The position numbers and the translations under genes were made by a program. The notes under the pieces are model-generated. The model saw nothing but the letters and a program-made list of their open reading frames with translations, had not been told where the DNA came from and searched no databases. Below are positions 34,854 through 51,660 of a stretch of DNA of 64,000 nucleotides, one piece after another. This stretch comes from Nitrosopumilus sp. (GTDB lineage Archaea; Thermoproteota; Nitrososphaeria; Nitrososphaerales; Nitrosopumilaceae), in NCBI GenBank assembly GCA_965219345.1, contig OZ244732.1, positions 1,184,001 through 1,248,000 of the forward strand. The letters are read 5' to 3'. Numbering within the stretch: position 1 is the first letter of the stretch; every line of letters starts with the position of its first letter.

Positions 34854-34937
34854 TGGATCATAATATTAGAGAATAGTATTAAAACATAGATTAAATTGGT
34901 TCTGTGTAATCTTCGGGTGCCGATTTTCTCAAAAAAA

Positions 34938-36056
34938 TTACTCAGCAGCCGTACTGAGTGAGGCGTTTTGGATTATGGTTTTCCACTTGTTAACCCCATC
35001 AACCTCAATGAGTGATGCTTCCGCAGGGGTCTTGCCTTTGAGTGCAGAGTGCTTCTTGGTATAGTTGTAATAGACTCTCATGCCATCCAGTATGGCTGTG
35101 TCCATTTTCTTCAGGCCTCTAAAGACTTTCTCACGGTCACGGATTTCAGAATTTAACCTCTCTTGCTTGTTGTTATTGTCTTCGTCTCGTTTCCCAGCCA
35201 GGTGAATGTGCTTTACGTGGTTTGTCTTTTTGCCAAAGACTTTTTTGGATGATTTGGCATAGGCTGGAAGCCCGTCAGTGATGAAGTTTCTGGGGGATTT
35301 GCCAGCTTGTTTCTTGGTCATGTCAAGGAGTGAATCCGCATTGTGCTGGAATTTGTTGTCGGCTAGGTCACTAGCCAGCCAATACCTCGTGTCATCATCC
35401 ATGCTTGCAAACAGATAGCATTGCTTTCCGTTTATCTTTATCCACATCTCATCAGCCCTGAACCAGTTGCCAACCCTAGGTACTATTCCGTTGAGGTATT
35501 CGGCAGCCAATTTGGAGTATTTGTCGACCCAGTTGTAAACGGTCTTGTGGCATACGTCTATTCCCATCATCTCATAGTGGTCGGCAATATCCCTGACTGA
35601 CATTCCTGTAAAATACATCTGTAGATCTCCGGTGATTATCTTATCGTCAAACTGTTTCTTCTCGAAGCCAAAGTTTGCTGTAAAACGTCTCTTGCAGTCA
35701 AGACACTGGAACCTCTGGACATTGCCATTCTTGGTCTGTCTTGTGCCGTTCTTCTTGATATTGCCAGAGTCACAATACTTGCAGAGTTGCAGCTTGGATC
35801 TTTCCAAGATTCTAAACATGTTGTTTCTGTAACCGCCATTTCGTCTCATCATATCCAAGACAATCTTGATGTGCTTGCAGTCTGCGTTTCTGCTGGTATG
35901 GTCTGGATACTCACATACCAGCTTCTCACCATTTGTGACTGTATAGAATTTTGTAGGATCGGTTTGTGATCTTACTTTGAATCTGTCGTGGTCAATCTGG
36001 GAGCAATAACCGCTTGTTGACATGATTTGTTTTGCACGTTCCATTCTTGGGTTCAT
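34938..36056 (-). CDS. DDE transposase, IS6/IS240-like, with SWIM-like and IS1-type Zn-ribbon N-terminal domains
   Basis: CKH; CKYC...CLDC; HTH; ADEMW, ITDG, ERLN catalytic motifs; YN..K.H..L.G.TPAE. Confidence 0.92.
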   Translation of the reverse strand: MNPRMERAKQIMSTSGYCSQIDHDRFKVRSQTDPTKFYTVTNGEKLVCEYPDHTSRNADCKHIKIVLDMMRRNGGYRNNMFRILERSKLQLCKYCDSGNIKKNGTRQTKNGNVQRFQCLDCKRRFTANFGFEKKQFDDKIITGDLQMYFTGMSVRDIADHYEMMGIDVCHKTVYNWVDKYSKLAAEYLNGIVPRVGNWFRADEMWIKINGKQCYLFASMDDDTRYWLASDLADNKFQHNADSLLDMTKKQAGKSPRNFITDGLPAYAKSSKKVFGKKTNHVKHIHLAGKRDEDNNNKQERLNSEIRDREKVFRGLKKMDTAILDGMRVYYNYTKKHSALKGKTPAEASLIEVDGVNKWKTIIQNASLSTAAE

Positions 36057-36105
36057 GCGTGATTCCCCGTGAAAATTAATATAGAATGAAAAGAAATGAC
36101 ATGTG

Positions 36106-36191
36106 CGGCAGGAGTGGGATTTGAACCCACGATCTCGGCGAGAGACACAGATTCTGAATCTGTCGCTTTAACCTTGCTAAGCAATCCTGCC
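36106..36191 (-). tRNA. Non-canonical type II tRNA, anticodon CAG, discriminator G73 (Leu anticodon, Ser-like body)
   Basis: Acceptor GGCAGGA/TCCTGCC+G; D stem GCTT/AAGC with GG; anticodon arm ACAGA-TTCAGAA-TCTGT; variable arm TCTC-TCGCC-GAGA; T arm GTGGG-TTCAAAT-CCCAC. Confidence 0.88.
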
Positions 36192-36196
36192 ATGTA

Positions 36197-36246
36197 TATA
36201 TTATGCGTACACATAATATAATCCTTGCTATTAAGGGTACACATAA
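36197..36246. promoter_or_regulatory. Divergent promoter/operator: 24-bp near-perfect palindrome plus a GTACACATAA direct repeat
   Basis: TATATTATGcGTACaCATAATATA at 36197-36220; GTACACATAA at 36207 and 36237. Confidence 0.55.
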
Positions 36247-36270: not shown

Positions 36271-36435
36271 ATGACAAGGTGGAAAAAAGACGAGACGGAA
36301 TTTCCGGTCAGCGTAAGCTCCAACGGACATACAAAGTCATGCAGGATTCCAAAGCCCATACTTGAACTTCTTGACAACCCAAACTCGCTAAAATTTATCG
36401 TCAAGGGGAAGCATGTAGAGATCGAGGGCGAATGA
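36271..36435 (+). CDS. Small AbrB/MazE-like DNA-binding protein (54 aa; not in the ORF track)
   Basis: MTRWKKDETEFPVSVSSNGHTKSCRIPKPILELLDNPNSLKFIVKGKHVEIEGE, with an IPK.I...L pattern. Confidence 0.65.
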   Translation: MTRWKKDETEFPVSVSSNGHTKSCRIPKPILELLDNPNSLKFIVKGKHVEIEGE

Positions 36436-36613: not shown

Positions 36614-37621
36614 ATGACATCAAACAATGCCTCACTTAGCAATGCAAGAGCTACCAAACAAGACGAGTTTTACACGCAACTTGTAGATATTGAGAACGAG
36701 CTTAAACACTATCAAAATCACTTTAGTGACAAGACTGTCCTTTGCAACTGCGATGATCCACGAATCAGCAGCTTCTTCCACTATTTTTCATACAACTTTG
36801 AAAGACTAAAACTGAAAAAACTCATCGCAACCTGTTATAAAAACCAGCAGATGGATTTGTTTAGCCGGAATAAATCAGAATGTGCAATATATCTCGAATA
36901 CAATGGTGACAAAAACCAAAACAAGGTTCCTGATCCTAAAGAAATTGGAATACACTACTTTAAAAAAGACGGGGATTTTCGCAGTGATGAATGCATTGAA
37001 ATCCTGAAACGTGCAGATATTGTAGTGACGAATCCACCATTCTCACTATTTCGGGAATACGTTGCACAGTTGATAAAATACAAAAAACACTTTCTAATCA
37101 TAGGAAATCAAAATGCCATAGCCACCAGAGAAATATTTCCTTTAATCAAAGATAATAAAATGTGGTTAGGTGAGAGTATACATAGTGGGGATAGAGAGTT
37201 TGGTGTTCCAGACAATTACACATTAAATGCTGCTGGATTTAGGATCGATGGGGATGGAAGAAAATTCATAAGAGTAAAAGGGGTTCGTTGGTTTACCAAC
37301 ATTGATTACAAGGAACGCCATAAAGATTTGATCCTTTACAAAAAATACAACAAGACAGAATATCCAAAATATGACAATTACAATGCCATAAACATCAACA
37401 AAACAAAAGAAATTCCAATGGATTATGACGGAATAATGGGTGTGCCAATAACATTCGTGGATAAATACAATCCAGAACAGTTTGAAATAATAGATTTGAT
37501 TAATCGATATAGTTTGTTGGACGGCCCGACACCCACAACGAAAGGAAAATACCTAACAGAATTAGGAGATAAACGAAAATATTCTCGCATCATAATCAAA
37601 CACAAAAGGATTGCCCGTTAA
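36614..37621 (+). CDS. Adenine-specific DNA methyltransferase, EcoRI-family-like
   Basis: DEFYT, VLCNCDDP, GDFRS.EC, DIVVTNPPFSLFREY, MGVPITF.DKY. Confidence 0.88.
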   Translation: MTSNNASLSNARATKQDEFYTQLVDIENELKHYQNHFSDKTVLCNCDDPRISSFFHYFSYNFERLKLKKLIATCYKNQQMDLFSRNKSECAIYLEYNGDKNQNKVPDPKEIGIHYFKKDGDFRSDECIEILKRADIVVTNPPFSLFREYVAQLIKYKKHFLIIGNQNAIATREIFPLIKDNKMWLGESIHSGDREFGVPDNYTLNAAGFRIDGDGRKFIRVKGVRWFTNIDYKERHKDLILYKKYNKTEYPKYDNYNAININKTKEIPMDYDGIMGVPITFVDKYNPEQFEIIDLINRYSLLDGPTPTTKGKYLTELGDKRKYSRIIIKHKRIAR

Positions 37622-38703
37622 TGAATATAGAACTCAAAAAAATCACTGTCAAGGAGTTATCCAAAGATTATGTGGATAATGCAGAAGAAGGCGTTTTAGG
37701 CTATGGGGGTAAACTAGACATTAGACCACCCTATCAAAGGGAATTTATTTACAAAGATAAACAACGGGATGCGGTAATTGATACAATCACCAAGAAGTTC
37801 CCACTCAATGTCATGTATTGGTCAGTACGGGATGATGGAAATTTTGAGATTATCGACGGGCAGCAAAGGACAATATCCGTCTGTCAATATATCACTGGGG
37901 CATTTTCGTTTAATTCAAAATATTTCCACAATCTACAGGATGACGAACAGAAAAAAATTCTCGATTATGAGTTGATGGTTTACCTGTGCAGTGGAACGGA
38001 CAGTGAGAGGCTAAAGTGGTTTGAGACTATCAATATTGCAGGAGAAAAATTAACTTCCCAAGAACTTAGAAACGCAGTCTATTCAGGATCATGGATTTCA
38101 GATGCCAAACTCTATTTCAGTAAAAGGAACTGCGCAGCTTATGGAATTGCCAGTGATTATGTAAGTGGCTCTGCTATCCGTCAGGAATATCTTGAAACAG
38201 CTATAAGGTGGATTTCAAAGGATAGCATAAATGAATACATGGCCAAACACCAGCACGACCAAAACGCCAACATATTGTGGAATTATTTTCAGGCCGTGAT
38301 TAACTGGGTTGAGACCACATTCAAAATCAAGAGAAAGCAGATGAAAAATGTGGATTGGGGTCCCCTGTATAACAAATACAATGATACACAGATGGATACA
38401 GAACAGATTGAGGAAGAAACGAAAAAACTGTTTTTGGATGATGATGTTACCAAGAAAAGCGGGATTTATCCATACATACTTACACGGAATGAAAAATATC
38501 TCTCGATCCGTTCATTTACAGAAAATATGAAGCAAAAAGTCTATGAATTACAGAAGGGCAAATGTGTAAAATGTCAGGAACATTTTGATCTATCTGAAAT
38601 GGAGGCAGACCATATCAAACCTTGGCATGAAGGCGGTAAAACGACAGAGGAAAACTGTCAGTTACTTTGTAAGAACGACAATCGTGCAAAGTCAGGAAAA
38701 TAG
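37621..38703 (+). CDS. DUF262 (ParB-like) plus HNH endonuclease (GmrSD-like restriction protein)
   Basis: RP.YQREF, IDGQQR, F..IN..G..L; C-terminal CxxC, DHI.PW..GG.T...NCQLLC. Confidence 0.85.
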   Translation: MNIELKKITVKELSKDYVDNAEEGVLGYGGKLDIRPPYQREFIYKDKQRDAVIDTITKKFPLNVMYWSVRDDGNFEIIDGQQRTISVCQYITGAFSFNSKYFHNLQDDEQKKILDYELMVYLCSGTDSERLKWFETINIAGEKLTSQELRNAVYSGSWISDAKLYFSKRNCAAYGIASDYVSGSAIRQEYLETAIRWISKDSINEYMAKHQHDQNANILWNYFQAVINWVETTFKIKRKQMKNVDWGPLYNKYNDTQMDTEQIEEETKKLFLDDDVTKKSGIYPYILTRNEKYLSIRSFTENMKQKVYELQKGKCVKCQEHFDLSEMEADHIKPWHEGGKTTEENCQLLCKNDNRAKSGK

Positions 38704-50924: not shown

Positions 50925-51250
50925 AAAGGCATGGAAAAATAACTACAAGGCAAAAAATCCACTTTGGAAAGACACTGAACATGTCAGACACATTCACATG
51001 AAAGGTGACAAAAACAATAATCGCGTGGAACGTTTGAACGGTACAATCAGGGACAGGGAAGTCTCATACAGGGGGATAAAGAAAATGAAGTCCACTCTTT
51101 GCAGGATTTCAGACATTCTACAATTTCTCAAAGAAGCATGGAGGTATAGGCAAAAAGACACCAGCTGAGATGGCAGATATTCTAGTTGATGGGAATAACA
51201 AGTGGAAGACCGTAATCCAAAATGCCAGTCTAAACAAAAATTACGTCTAG
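50925..51250 (+). pseudogene. C-terminal remnant of an IS6-like transposase
   Basis: HVRHIHMKGDKNNNRVERLNGTIRDRE..RG.KKM, frameshift near 51100, then YNF..KH....KTPAE.A...VDG.NKWKTVIQNASL; homologous to the transposase at 34938-36056. Confidence 0.88.
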
Positions 51251-51383: not shown

Positions 51384-51416
51384 GGATTTTTATTATTTTT
51401 AATTTTTCAAATCTTT

Positions 51417-51498
51417 GCTACGATACGCAAGCTCGGTATGCGGGGAGCCTCCTAAGCTTCTGCCATGCGGTTCGGGGGTTTAAATCCCTCTCGTAGCG
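51417..51498 (+). tRNA. Non-canonical tRNA, anticodon CCT, 13-nt variable arm, G73 (Arg anticodon, type II body)
   Basis: Acceptor GCTACGA/TCGTAGC+G; D stem CGCA/TGCG; anticodon arm GGAGC-CTCCTAA-GCTTC; variable arm GCC-ATGC-GGT; T arm GGGGG-TTTAAAT-CCCTC (C56 replaced by T). Confidence 0.8.
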
Positions 51499-51660
51499 TT
51501 GTTTTTCAATTCAGAGAAGATCCATGTTTCATTCTATATCCCCATAACTTAGCAGAACCACATTTTGAAATGGTATAATTAGATGAACTTTTTTTATTTT
51601 TTTACGAAAATGCATTATCTGCTAGCTAATATTGTTATTTATGCAAAAATCTAGTTAGTA

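Follow-up and report, generated by a model that had tools for sequence, protein, structure and literature searches.

A transposon-linked class II tRNA with anticodon CAG and largely serine-type architecture in Nitrosopumilus

Introduction

Transfer RNAs (tRNAs) whose anticodon is at odds with their identity are known from a few bacteria, where they are called allo-tRNAs, from nematodes and from CTG-clade yeasts. The CTG-clade yeasts have a serine-type tRNA with anticodon CAG, and CUG is reassigned or stochastically decoded genome-wide. The yeast tRNA-Ser(CAG) gene is chromosomal and vertically inherited and the tRNA has G33 and 1-methylguanosine at position 37 (m1G37); in Ascoidea, tRNA-Ser(CAG) competes with a tRNA-Leu(CAG). 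The allo-tRNAs, according to the available portions of two studies, have serine identity and 35 different anticodons, UAU being the commonest, and their genes lie near transposon and toxin-antitoxin genes; some with leucine anticodons put serine at CUC and UUA codons in E. coli (PMC5389517, PMC7609411). The nematode nev-tRNAs, in the available portion of their description, are class II tRNAs in which the anticodon (e.g. UAU) disagrees with the class II identity and which are charged with leucine (PMC3333845). In this study we describe a class II tRNA gene with anticodon CAG (the CAG tRNA) that lies beside a transposase gene in the genome of Nitrosopumilus sp. (assembly GCA_965219345.1). The gene is found in a stretch of 64,000 nucleotides (nt) of contig OZ244732.1 (positions 1,184,001 to 1,248,000, forward strand), which is called the window and whose own positions are used below.

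An earlier note on this DNA had read the gene as a tRNA with a leucine anticodon and serine identity features, and had proposed that it is mobile and that it may decode CUG as serine. We will focus on the structure of the CAG tRNA, on the host tRNAs and synthetases with which it can be compared, on the transposon that carries it and on the meaning of CUG in the host. The CAG tRNA provides a clean case of identity/anticodon mismatch, with a standard cloverleaf, in a sequenced ammonia oxidiser and in a defined genetic context. That context is a transposon slot that is common to tRNAs and to RNAs resembling C/D-box small RNAs (sRNAs) and that often adjoins restriction-modification genes. The use and purpose of natural mistranslating tRNAs thereby become directly testable, and the pattern of an exchangeable slot on thaumarchaeal transposons widens the interest past a single gene.

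Structure of the CAG tRNA

Three tRNAs were called in the window by ARAGORN, and one of these is a tRNA-Leu(cag) at 36105-36191 on the minus strand. The Rfam tRNA model (RF00005) matches 36106-36191 on the same strand over its full length (model positions 1-71) with 58.8 bits against a gathering score of 29 (E 1.1e-10). The gene is listed as follows.

36106..36191, minus strand: class II tRNA with anticodon CAG and a 7/5 acceptor/T configuration (ARAGORN, Rfam, structural parse and fold)

The acceptor stem GGCAGGA/UCCUGCC contains the pairs G1:C72, G2:C71 and C3:G70 and is followed by U8 and U9. The D arm consists of a stem of 4 base pairs (bp), GCUU/AAGC, and a loop of 10 nt, AGCAAGGUUA, after which comes G26. 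The anticodon stem ACAGA/UCUGU includes G30:C40 and closes the loop UUCAGAA with U33, the anticodon CAG (plus-strand CTG at 36154-36156) and A37. The variable region GUCUCUCGCCGAGAUC is 16 nt long and forms a 5-bp stem that opens with a G.U pair and a 5-nt loop, UCGCC; it folds as (((((.....))))). with one unpaired 3' base and without AG in the loop. The T arm is GUGGG UUCAAAU CCCAC, and position 36106 provides the discriminator, G73. In the structural parse the four main stems have 21 pairs, every one of them Watson-Crick. What the earlier note had listed for this gene, namely a complete CAG cloverleaf with Watson-Crick stems and a long variable arm, G73, G1:C72, C3:G70, G30:C40 and A37, was present throughout. 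The folding energy is -35.3 kcal/mol compared to -21.0 +/- 3 for shuffled sequences (z = -4.75), and it was equalled by none of 200 shuffles.

The sequence was also compared with public contigs from runs X1 and X3, in which a 123-nt contig spans 36071-36193 with a sole differing letter, T>C at 36120. This change is exactly the single difference of the second genomic copy of the tRNA (copy B, below), and the depth of the contig is about twice that of the flanking contigs (104 versus 46-47 in X1). Because X1 and X3 may be the source of the window itself, this agreement is a consistency check and not independent; as far as the public contigs show, the sequence of the CAG tRNA is no assembly slip.

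Host tRNAs, synthetases and identity elements

The host genome is 1.91 Mb with 36% G+C in 2 contigs. It has 52 tRNA calls by ARAGORN and 52 Rfam tRNA matches at E <= 0.01, 50 of which are above the cut-off. The earlier note had asked whether a separate canonical tRNA-Leu(CAG) exists, and one with A73 was located at C1:491458-491544. The other leucine and serine tRNAs are Leu(GAG), Leu(UAG), Leu(CAA), Ser(GCU), Ser(UGA), Ser(CGA) and Ser(GGA). The discriminator separates the two groups: A73 is found in all four leucine tRNAs (ARAGORN calls) and G73 in all four serine tRNAs. The D and variable arms were compared in the three intron-less leucine tRNAs and in three serine tRNAs, and the intron-bearing Leu(CAA) and Ser(GGA) entered for the discriminator only. 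The leucine tRNAs have a D arm with a 3-bp stem and an 11-nt loop, and the serine tRNAs have a D stem of 4 bp (3 bp in Ser(CGA)) with a loop of 7 or 9 nt. The leucine variable region, UCU(C/U)(U/C)(U/C)AGGAGUUC, makes a weak 3-bp stem with three unpaired 3' bases and folds as.(((....)))... or is unfolded. The serine variable arm, (((((....)))))., has a 5-bp stem, a tetraloop, no unpaired 5' base and one unpaired 3' base.

In this comparison the variable arm and discriminator of the CAG tRNA are built as in the serine tRNAs, and its D arm nearly so. The features tested for a substrate of leucyl-tRNA synthetase (LeuRS) are absent, G73 standing in place of A73 and the leucine-type variable arm being missing. 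Of the features tested for a substrate of seryl-tRNA synthetase (SerRS), G73, a serine-type long variable arm and G30:C40 are present, and the host acceptor pair C2:G71 is absent. The serine identity that had been claimed for the gene is thus supported by G73, by G30:C40 and by the geometry of the variable arm, which matches the host serine tRNAs, but it loses one of its arguments. A37 had been taken to point away from leucine, and this argument is void because the canonical host tRNA-Leu(CAG) carries A37 as well. At this position the loops are UUCAGAU in the host tRNA-Leu(CAG) and CUCAGAA in the tRNA-Leu(CAG) of family f9, both with A37, and G37 is found in Leu(GAG) and Leu(UAG).

Identity elements for both amino acids have been described in archaea. 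According to the available portion of the source, leucine identity in H. volcanii depends on A73 and on A47c, G47d and U47h of the variable loop, and G73 of tRNA-Ser is an antideterminant against LeuRS (PMC9976931). In M. barkeri, G73 and then G30:C40 are strong elements for both SerRSs, the bacterial-like and the methanogen-specific one; for serine identity in general the variable arm matters and the anticodon does not (PMC9976931). The same source reports that a change of A73 to G in human tRNA-Leu leads to serine acceptance (PMC9976931). By these published archaeal rules the CAG tRNA should be serylated and not leucylated. The host has one SerRS with an N-terminal arm domain (bacterial-type), in the region of C1:858545, and one archaeal LeuRS above the cut-off, at C1:152313-155138, and searches with the SerRS and LeuRS families found no extra synthetase in the genome.

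The transposon that carries the CAG tRNA

The CAG tRNA occurs twice in the host. Copy B, at C1:1730533-1730619, is identical to the window copy (copy A) at 86 of 87 positions (98.9%), and in both the tRNA lies 49 nt upstream of a DDE transposase gene on the same strand. The two loci are otherwise unrelated, and what they have in common is a unit of 1.26 kilobases (kb) that begins 42 nt upstream of the tRNA and ends about 40 nt beyond the transposase stop. The mobility that the earlier note had suggested is thus well founded: the CAG tRNA is transposon cargo. The parts of the unit in the window are listed below.

34938..36056, minus strand: IS6-like DDE transposase of 372 amino acids (372/373 in A/B) with an N-terminal zinc-binding region (Pfam, NCBIfam)
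36057..36105, minus strand: 49-nt spacer with T-rich tracts (possible terminator), then the motif TTCTATATTAATTTTC.GGGG before the transposase ATG
36214..36221, minus strand: TATA-like box TTATATTA, -30..-23 from tRNA position 1, putative promoter (sequence reading)
36199..36246, minus strand: pair of 18-nt direct repeats, TTATGTGTACCCTTAATA at 36229-36246 and TTATGTGTACGCATAATA at 36199-36216, on either side of the TATA box
34898..34937, minus strand: right-end motif GAGAAAATC...ATTACACAGAACC downstream of the transposase stop, where the A/B homology ends

The transposase of copy A matches Pfam DDE_Tnp_IS240 (E 3.7e-13, 50.2 bits against 27) and also rve, and it reaches 120.8 bits with the NCBIfam IS6 model (NF033587), slightly below the cut-off of 125. 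The transposases of A and B are only 52% identical at third codon positions, and the spacers are identical at 46 of 49 positions. This near-identity of tRNA and spacer beside highly diverged transposases indicates that the RNA block is strongly constrained or has recently been exchanged.

The TATA-like box is preceded by a purine-rich GCAAGGA, and transcription is predicted to start at G1 or at most 2 nt away. The same layout is found in copy B, in the relative G325 (below) and at the loci L031, L033 and L040, and the box may serve as a promoter. A promoter-like box and a T-tract are kept in all copies of the CAG tRNA, and the spacer motif TTCTATATTAATTTTC also occurs in paralogues that carry C/D-like sRNAs. 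The direct repeats (12-18 nt) lie on both sides of the TATA-like box, have a sequence specific to each element copy and look like an operator or binding site. In copies without an RNA the repeat is present many times, e.g. ATAACCTA in L034.

The right-end motif, written across copies as ...GAGAAGATC...(A/T)(T/C)ACAGAACC, is found 40-95 nt past the stop in copies A, D and E and at L031, L032, L033, L035 and L036, and it probably marks the right end of the element. An ungapped scan for terminal inverted repeats over 400 nt on each side of 17 copies gave no inverted match longer than 8-11 nt. The transposase family accounts for 44 tblastn segments in the host genome and is present in 20 of 61 genomes of the genus (E <= 1e-40). 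Within 3 kb of such a segment are 14 of the 52 host tRNA calls.

Relatives of the CAG tRNA

A DNA search of 401 genomes of the order (including the unpublished G271 and G108), with matches required to cover at least 60 of 86 nt, placed the CAG tRNA family in four genomes: the host with two copies, G325, G217 and G367. The G325 copy is 98% identical, has CAG and G73, and differs by a compensatory change of G2:C71 to A2:U71. The G217 copy, from another genus, is 85% identical, has anticodon GAG and G73, and shows pair-preserving double changes at 7:66, 31:39 and 50:64. These compensatory changes, together with the 21 paired positions of 21 in the window copy, agree with the earlier argument that intact stems speak against random decay. 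The G367 copy is 5'-truncated: its 5' half is missing, it has anticodon GAA and G73, and a decayed transposase follows. Matches in three genomes of family f9 are ordinary tRNA-Leu(CAG) genes with A73.

In G325 (L002, G325:C1:613542-616625) the tRNA at 1499-1584 is followed by an open reading frame (ORF) for an IS1595-family transposase at 1634-2635. The cassette there extends from the promoter-like region through the tRNA and the spacer motif to the first codons, MNARQ. Its joining to an IS1595-family transposase makes the cassette look like a module of its own, which seems to move between transposon families. The gene order in G217 is methylase, small ORF, tRNA and IS6-like transposase. A further class II tRNA, at L008 (G012:C1:800562-800650), has anticodon GAA, A73 and a 20-nt variable arm; it has the acceptor and T arms in common with the CAG tRNA and would be a leucine-type frame with a phenylalanine anticodon.

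Outside these genomes, a metagenome scan with a degenerate pattern of the D and anticodon arms returned at least 114 stretches, mainly bacterial tRNA-Tyr(GUA) and tRNA-Ser(GCU/UGA), the pattern being too generic; among 148 loci examined there is no class II tRNA with CAG, GAG or GAA. Viral contigs gave no match to an exact 24-nt stretch of the tRNA, and the spacer motif was met in 7 viral contigs, all in unrelated coding sequence without tRNA or transposase. In a BLAST search of phages the CAG tRNA matched over no more than 29 nt of its T arm, in 17 Caulobacter phage tRNA-Met genes, and a plasmid BLAST search with it found no match.

Odd class II tRNAs and the shared small-RNA slot

The CAG tRNA belongs to a family of class II tRNAs that are linked to transposons and have anticodons other than those for serine. 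A set of 18 class II tRNAs that are transposon-linked or odd has 378 stem pairs, of which 369 are standard, and every one of the 18 has a 7-nt anticodon loop, U33, a purine at 37 and the canonical T-loop and D-loop elements. G73 is found in 16 of them and a serine anticodon in none. Nine anticodons are represented (CAG, GAG, GAA, UAU, GAU, UAA, CCU, UCU and AUC), and some recur over very different scaffolds: UAU and GAA in three each, GAU and CCU in two each.

The tRNAs share their position, about 50-60 nt upstream of the transposase ATG, with C/D-like sRNAs, and position 1 of the tRNA coincides with the G of the ATG where paralogues without an RNA have their start codon. The contents of this slot are as follows.

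8 near-full-length host copies: tRNA in 2 (A, B), C/D-like sRNA in 3 (G, H, I), none in 2 (E, F), unclear in 1 (D)
13 loci of other species with an N-terminus: tRNA in 3 (L031 and L033, UAU; L040, GAA; all with G73), sRNA by eye in 3 (L037, L042, L049), none in 7
28 further loci of the genus: tRNA in 1 (the truncated G367 copy), clear sRNA in 1 (L058), none in the remainder

The C/D-box-like sRNAs lie at these positions.

Host: C1:1035451-1035510, C1:212620-212690 and C1:1717015-1717075
Other loci: L058:1393-1451, L042:1396-1451, and in L037 and L049 about 50-110 nt before position 1501

They have a terminal stem followed by RUGAUGA, CUGA, UGAUGA and CUGA boxes. The Rfam matches of the C/D type are weak, with 26.9 bits for sR1 (L058) and 22.7 bits for sR14 (L042), both full-length and sub-threshold. 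A search for exact complements (10-12 nt) of six guide stretches mostly returned self-matches and pointed to no clear target in rRNA or tRNA.

Class II tRNAs also occur elsewhere on these elements. They lie directly past the transposase stop at L042 (UAA, G73), L049 (AUC, G73) and L034 (UAA, A73), and the UCU tRNA at C1:334078 and the CCU tRNA at 51416-51499 of the window each lie between a transposase remnant and a right-end motif. The window CCU tRNA and the further host members are listed here.

51416..51499 of the window, plus strand: odd class II-length tRNA with anticodon CCU, G73, a 13-nt variable region and the T loop UUUAAAU (ARAGORN; not in the Rfam list)
C1:951658-951748 and C1:969887-969977: class II tRNAs with GAU, G73, perfect stems and 20-nt variable arms
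C1:903933-904019 and C1:1038939-1039023: class II tRNAs with UAU and G73
C1:334078-334164 (UCU) and C1:1718374-1718456 (CCU): class II tRNAs with G73

Transposase remnants stand next to the window CCU tRNA at about 50950-51235, and ARAGORN called no ordinary short tRNA-Arg(CCU) in the host genome. The GAU tRNA at C1:951658 has the full slot layout with a decayed transposase. The UAU tRNA at 1038939 has visibly arisen from host tRNA-Ser(UGA) by mutation: the two agree at 79% of the fixed positions, and the loop CUUGAGA has become CUUAUGA; at least some members of the family therefore arose from tRNA-Ser by a change of anticodon. The T or acceptor stems are broken in the UCU tRNA at 334078 and the UAU tRNA at 903933. 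Two other tRNA-like genes, at C1:787949-788026 and C1:1438222-1438294, have 8-nt anticodon loops (ARAGORN 'tcgt' and 'tccg') and lie 153 and 29 nt, respectively, from C-terminal fragments of the IS6-like transposase family.

For the odd class II tRNAs with GAU, UAU, UCU and CCU an annotation as isoleucine or arginine tRNA by anticodon is probably wrong. More generally, class II-length genes annotated here as "tRNA-Leu(CAG)", "tRNA-Ile(UAU)" or "tRNA-Arg(CCU)" are probably not what the anticodon suggests.

Neighbouring genes

The genes next to copy A on the tRNA side are the following.

36271..36435, plus strand: divergent ORF of 54 amino acids (MTRWKKDETEF...), conserved beside the RNA slot
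36614-37621, plus strand: EcoRI-type adenine methyltransferase (Pfam E 1.1e-137)
37621-38703, plus strand: GmrSD_N and HNH endonuclease (Pfam E 1.1e-17 / 7.7e-13)

The divergent ORF (54-57 amino acids) is present at copies A, B and I, at G325 and G217, and at the GAU tRNA at C1:951658. It has no Pfam match, and an AbrB-like reading made by eye was left unconfirmed by Pfam. The linkage to restriction-modification-like genes is Pfam-based for copy A and for G217 (N6/N4 methylase) only; for copies E and I such neighbours were read by eye from N-terminal motifs, and at copy B the four neighbouring ORFs had no Pfam match. From these neighbours, the elements may be mobile restriction-modification units.

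The meaning of CUG in the host

CUG makes up 9.8% of leucine codons, or 8.1 per 1000 codons genome-wide. Its meaning was determined by aligning host ORFs with 400 kb of a congener, which gave 193 alignments with a mean identity of 70%. Leucine stands opposite 78.4% of the 435 aligned CUG codons, compared to 77-82% for the other five leucine codons, and serine is outside the six commonest residues facing CUG. CUG is still leucine, and there is no sign of reassignment to serine. The proposal that CUG is reassigned thus fails, as a canonical tRNA-Leu(CAG) exists and CUG faces leucine as often as the other leucine codons do. Serine put in at CUG would consequently amount to mistranslation, from which the element's own transposase would suffer too.

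In the linked transposases CUG lies in leucine or hydrophobic columns at 7 of 7 positions (copy A) and 4 of 4 positions (copy B), and on these grounds a recoding of the linked transposases was rejected. CUG provides 7 of 22 leucine codons in transposase A and 4 of 17 in B compared to 9.8% genome-wide, and 13 of 22 in the L031 transposase, whose linked tRNA reads AUA. AUA codons beside tRNA(UAU) are found in isoleucine or valine columns. A test for CUG depletion relative to G151 was unusable with a G+C content of 54% there and 36% here. G151 is placed in the same genus, and its 400 kb (C1:100001-500000, L082-L101) have 54% G+C, with CUG as 42% of leucine codons.

Possible roles of the CAG tRNA

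We favour, tentatively and with a confidence that stops somewhat short of an even chance, the explanation that the CAG tRNA is a missense tRNA that has serine identity and travels on a transposon, which would make it an archaeal 7/5 counterpart of the bacterial allo-tRNAs. An intact, selectively maintained class II tRNA gene would then be carried in the small-RNA slot that an IS6-like transposon has near its promoter, and it would be transcribed from its own TATA-like box and end at the T-rich stop. Through G73, G30:C40 and the variable and D arms the product would be accepted by the single bacterial-type SerRS and rejected by LeuRS. If expressed, it would compete for CUG codons with the canonical tRNA-Leu(CAG) and with tRNA-Leu(UAG) and insert serine there, and the outcome would be mistranslation and not a change of the genetic code. 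Several points weigh against this. Serine at CUG would damage the element's own transposase, strong expression would be costly with CUG at the genomic frequency given above, and a leucine-charged helper tRNA would be the better fit to the overuse of CUG in the transposase. The presence of C/D-box-like sRNAs in the slot of paralogues suggests that any stable small RNA may be enough to fill it. Copies A and B could be nearly identical because the cassette was exchanged recently and not through long purifying selection. The host serine-type acceptor pair C2:G71 is not found in the CAG tRNA, which has G2:C71 (A2:U71 in G325). Over 57 fixed positions the CAG tRNA is 56-63% identical to the host serine tRNAs and 54-61% to the host leucine tRNAs, and its T arm is identical to that of the host leucine tRNAs; being equidistant from both sets with a leucine T arm, it is not a recent copy of either.

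It is less probable, but a serious possibility, that the CAG tRNA is a non-translational RNA module of the transposon with an anticodon that is unused for decoding. A stable processed RNA would take the element's leaderless promoter, end in the T-tract and buffer, insulate or time the expression of the transposase, or otherwise serve transposition. Such a module would account for two unrelated RNA classes in one slot, both followed by a conserved TTCTATATTAATTTTC.AGG motif, and it is in keeping with tRNA position 1 at the G of the start ATG of the RNA-less paralogues and with the sub-threshold sR1 and sR14 matches in the slot at L058 and L042. It would also agree with Mukai et al., who, in the available portion of their study, considered most allo-tRNA(UAU) species to be unused in translation (PMC5389517). 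Against it, all 18 odd tRNAs keep the 7-nt loop, U33, the purine at 37 and the canonical T- and D-loop elements, and their anticodons recur over different scaffolds without ever being serine, which is unexpected for a loop free to drift. We know of no mechanism that links a tRNA to a DDE transposase. The improbable alternative of a leucine-accepting helper tRNA-Leu(CAG), serving a CUG-rich transposase in an AT-rich host as phage tRNAs do, draws on the same anticodons: CAG here, GAG in close relatives and UAA in more distant members are all leucine anticodons, and the many CUG codons of transposases A and B all need leucine. It is biologically sensible for a CUG-rich transposase and has the leucine T arm on its side, but it contradicts every known LeuRS rule. 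G73 replaces the A73 of all four host leucine tRNAs, the variable loop is UCGCC and not the host YYAG, and the host 3' GUUC tail is absent; in the available portion of the identity literature G73 is a LeuRS antideterminant in H. volcanii and the A73 to G change switches the human tRNA to serine (PMC9976931). The host already has tRNA-Leu(CAG) and tRNA-Leu(UAG), sister tRNAs with isoleucine, phenylalanine and arginine anticodons use the same G73 class II frame, and CUG is frequent at L031 too, where the linked tRNA reads AUA.

A decaying or silent pseudo-tRNA, left by transposon capture or duplication, is the least probable of these explanations and in our judgement very unlikely. Degenerate neighbours of transposase fragments do exist (the 8-nt loops at C1:787949 and C1:1438222 and the broken stems at 334078 and 903933), the G367 copy has lost its 5' half, and the UAU tRNA at 1038939 is plainly a mutated tRNA-Ser(UGA). 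The CAG tRNA, however, has no mismatch in 21 stem pairs, its copies agree at 86 of 87 positions beside transposases that are saturated at silent sites, compensatory changes occur in G325 and G217, and the promoter-like box and T-tract are retained in every copy. The explanation of a serine-identity missense tRNA can also be extended to the whole slot, an extension that we regard as doubtful. In this extension the transposons, often beside restriction-modification genes, would have an exchangeable slot for serine-identity tRNAs or C/D guide RNAs that reprogram host translation, the tRNAs being aimed at CUG, CUY, UUY, AUA, AUY and AGR codons. In one version, inducible proteome-wide mistranslation would be an addiction, stress or abortive-infection device controlled by the copy-specific promoter repeats. 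If true, mobile elements would have a new class of cargo, and archaea their first natural mistranslating tRNA system.

Comparison with known systems

Full-text literature searches, supplements aside, returned no report of an archaeal or insertion sequence (IS)-borne tRNA with mismatched identity and anticodon. The available portion of a survey of the thaumarchaeal mobilome, its insertion-sequence section included, reports no mismatched tRNA and does not mention small-RNA cargo of the elements (PMC6563490). The elements of the host can be compared with the IS6 family, as they have the same IS240/IS6 type of DDE transposase and are present in many copies and fragments in the host genome; they differ in a score slightly below the family cut-off (120.8 versus 125 bits) and in that the ungapped scan found no terminal inverted repeats.

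The tRNA-Ser(CAG) of CTG-clade yeasts has the same anticodon and is likewise of serine type. In the present case, however, CUG is leucine, the gene is mobile and found in 4 of 401 genomes, and the tRNA has U33 and A37. The nev-tRNAs, in contrast to the CAG tRNA, are eukaryotic and leucine-charged, and the available portion of their description does not report them on transposons (PMC3333845).

The allo-tRNAs are the closest described tRNAs. Both they and the CAG tRNA combine a long variable arm and G73 with a non-serine anticodon (PMC5389517, available portion), and the allo-tRNA anticodons include UAU, arginine, aspartate and some leucine anticodons (PMC5389517, PMC7609411, available portions). 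The allo-tRNAs have an 8/4 or 9/3 acceptor/T layout (a 12-bp branch) and, in the portions available, are reported from Clostridia, Proteobacteria and Acidobacteria, whereas the CAG tRNA is 7/5 and archaeal. Unlike the allo-tRNAs, the CAG tRNA has a fixed place on IS6-like transposons (in one case on an IS1595-like one), and C/D-box-like sRNAs can take this place instead. With its 7/5 configuration and archaeal host, the CAG tRNA is therefore allo-tRNA-like in its predicted action rather than a member of that group.

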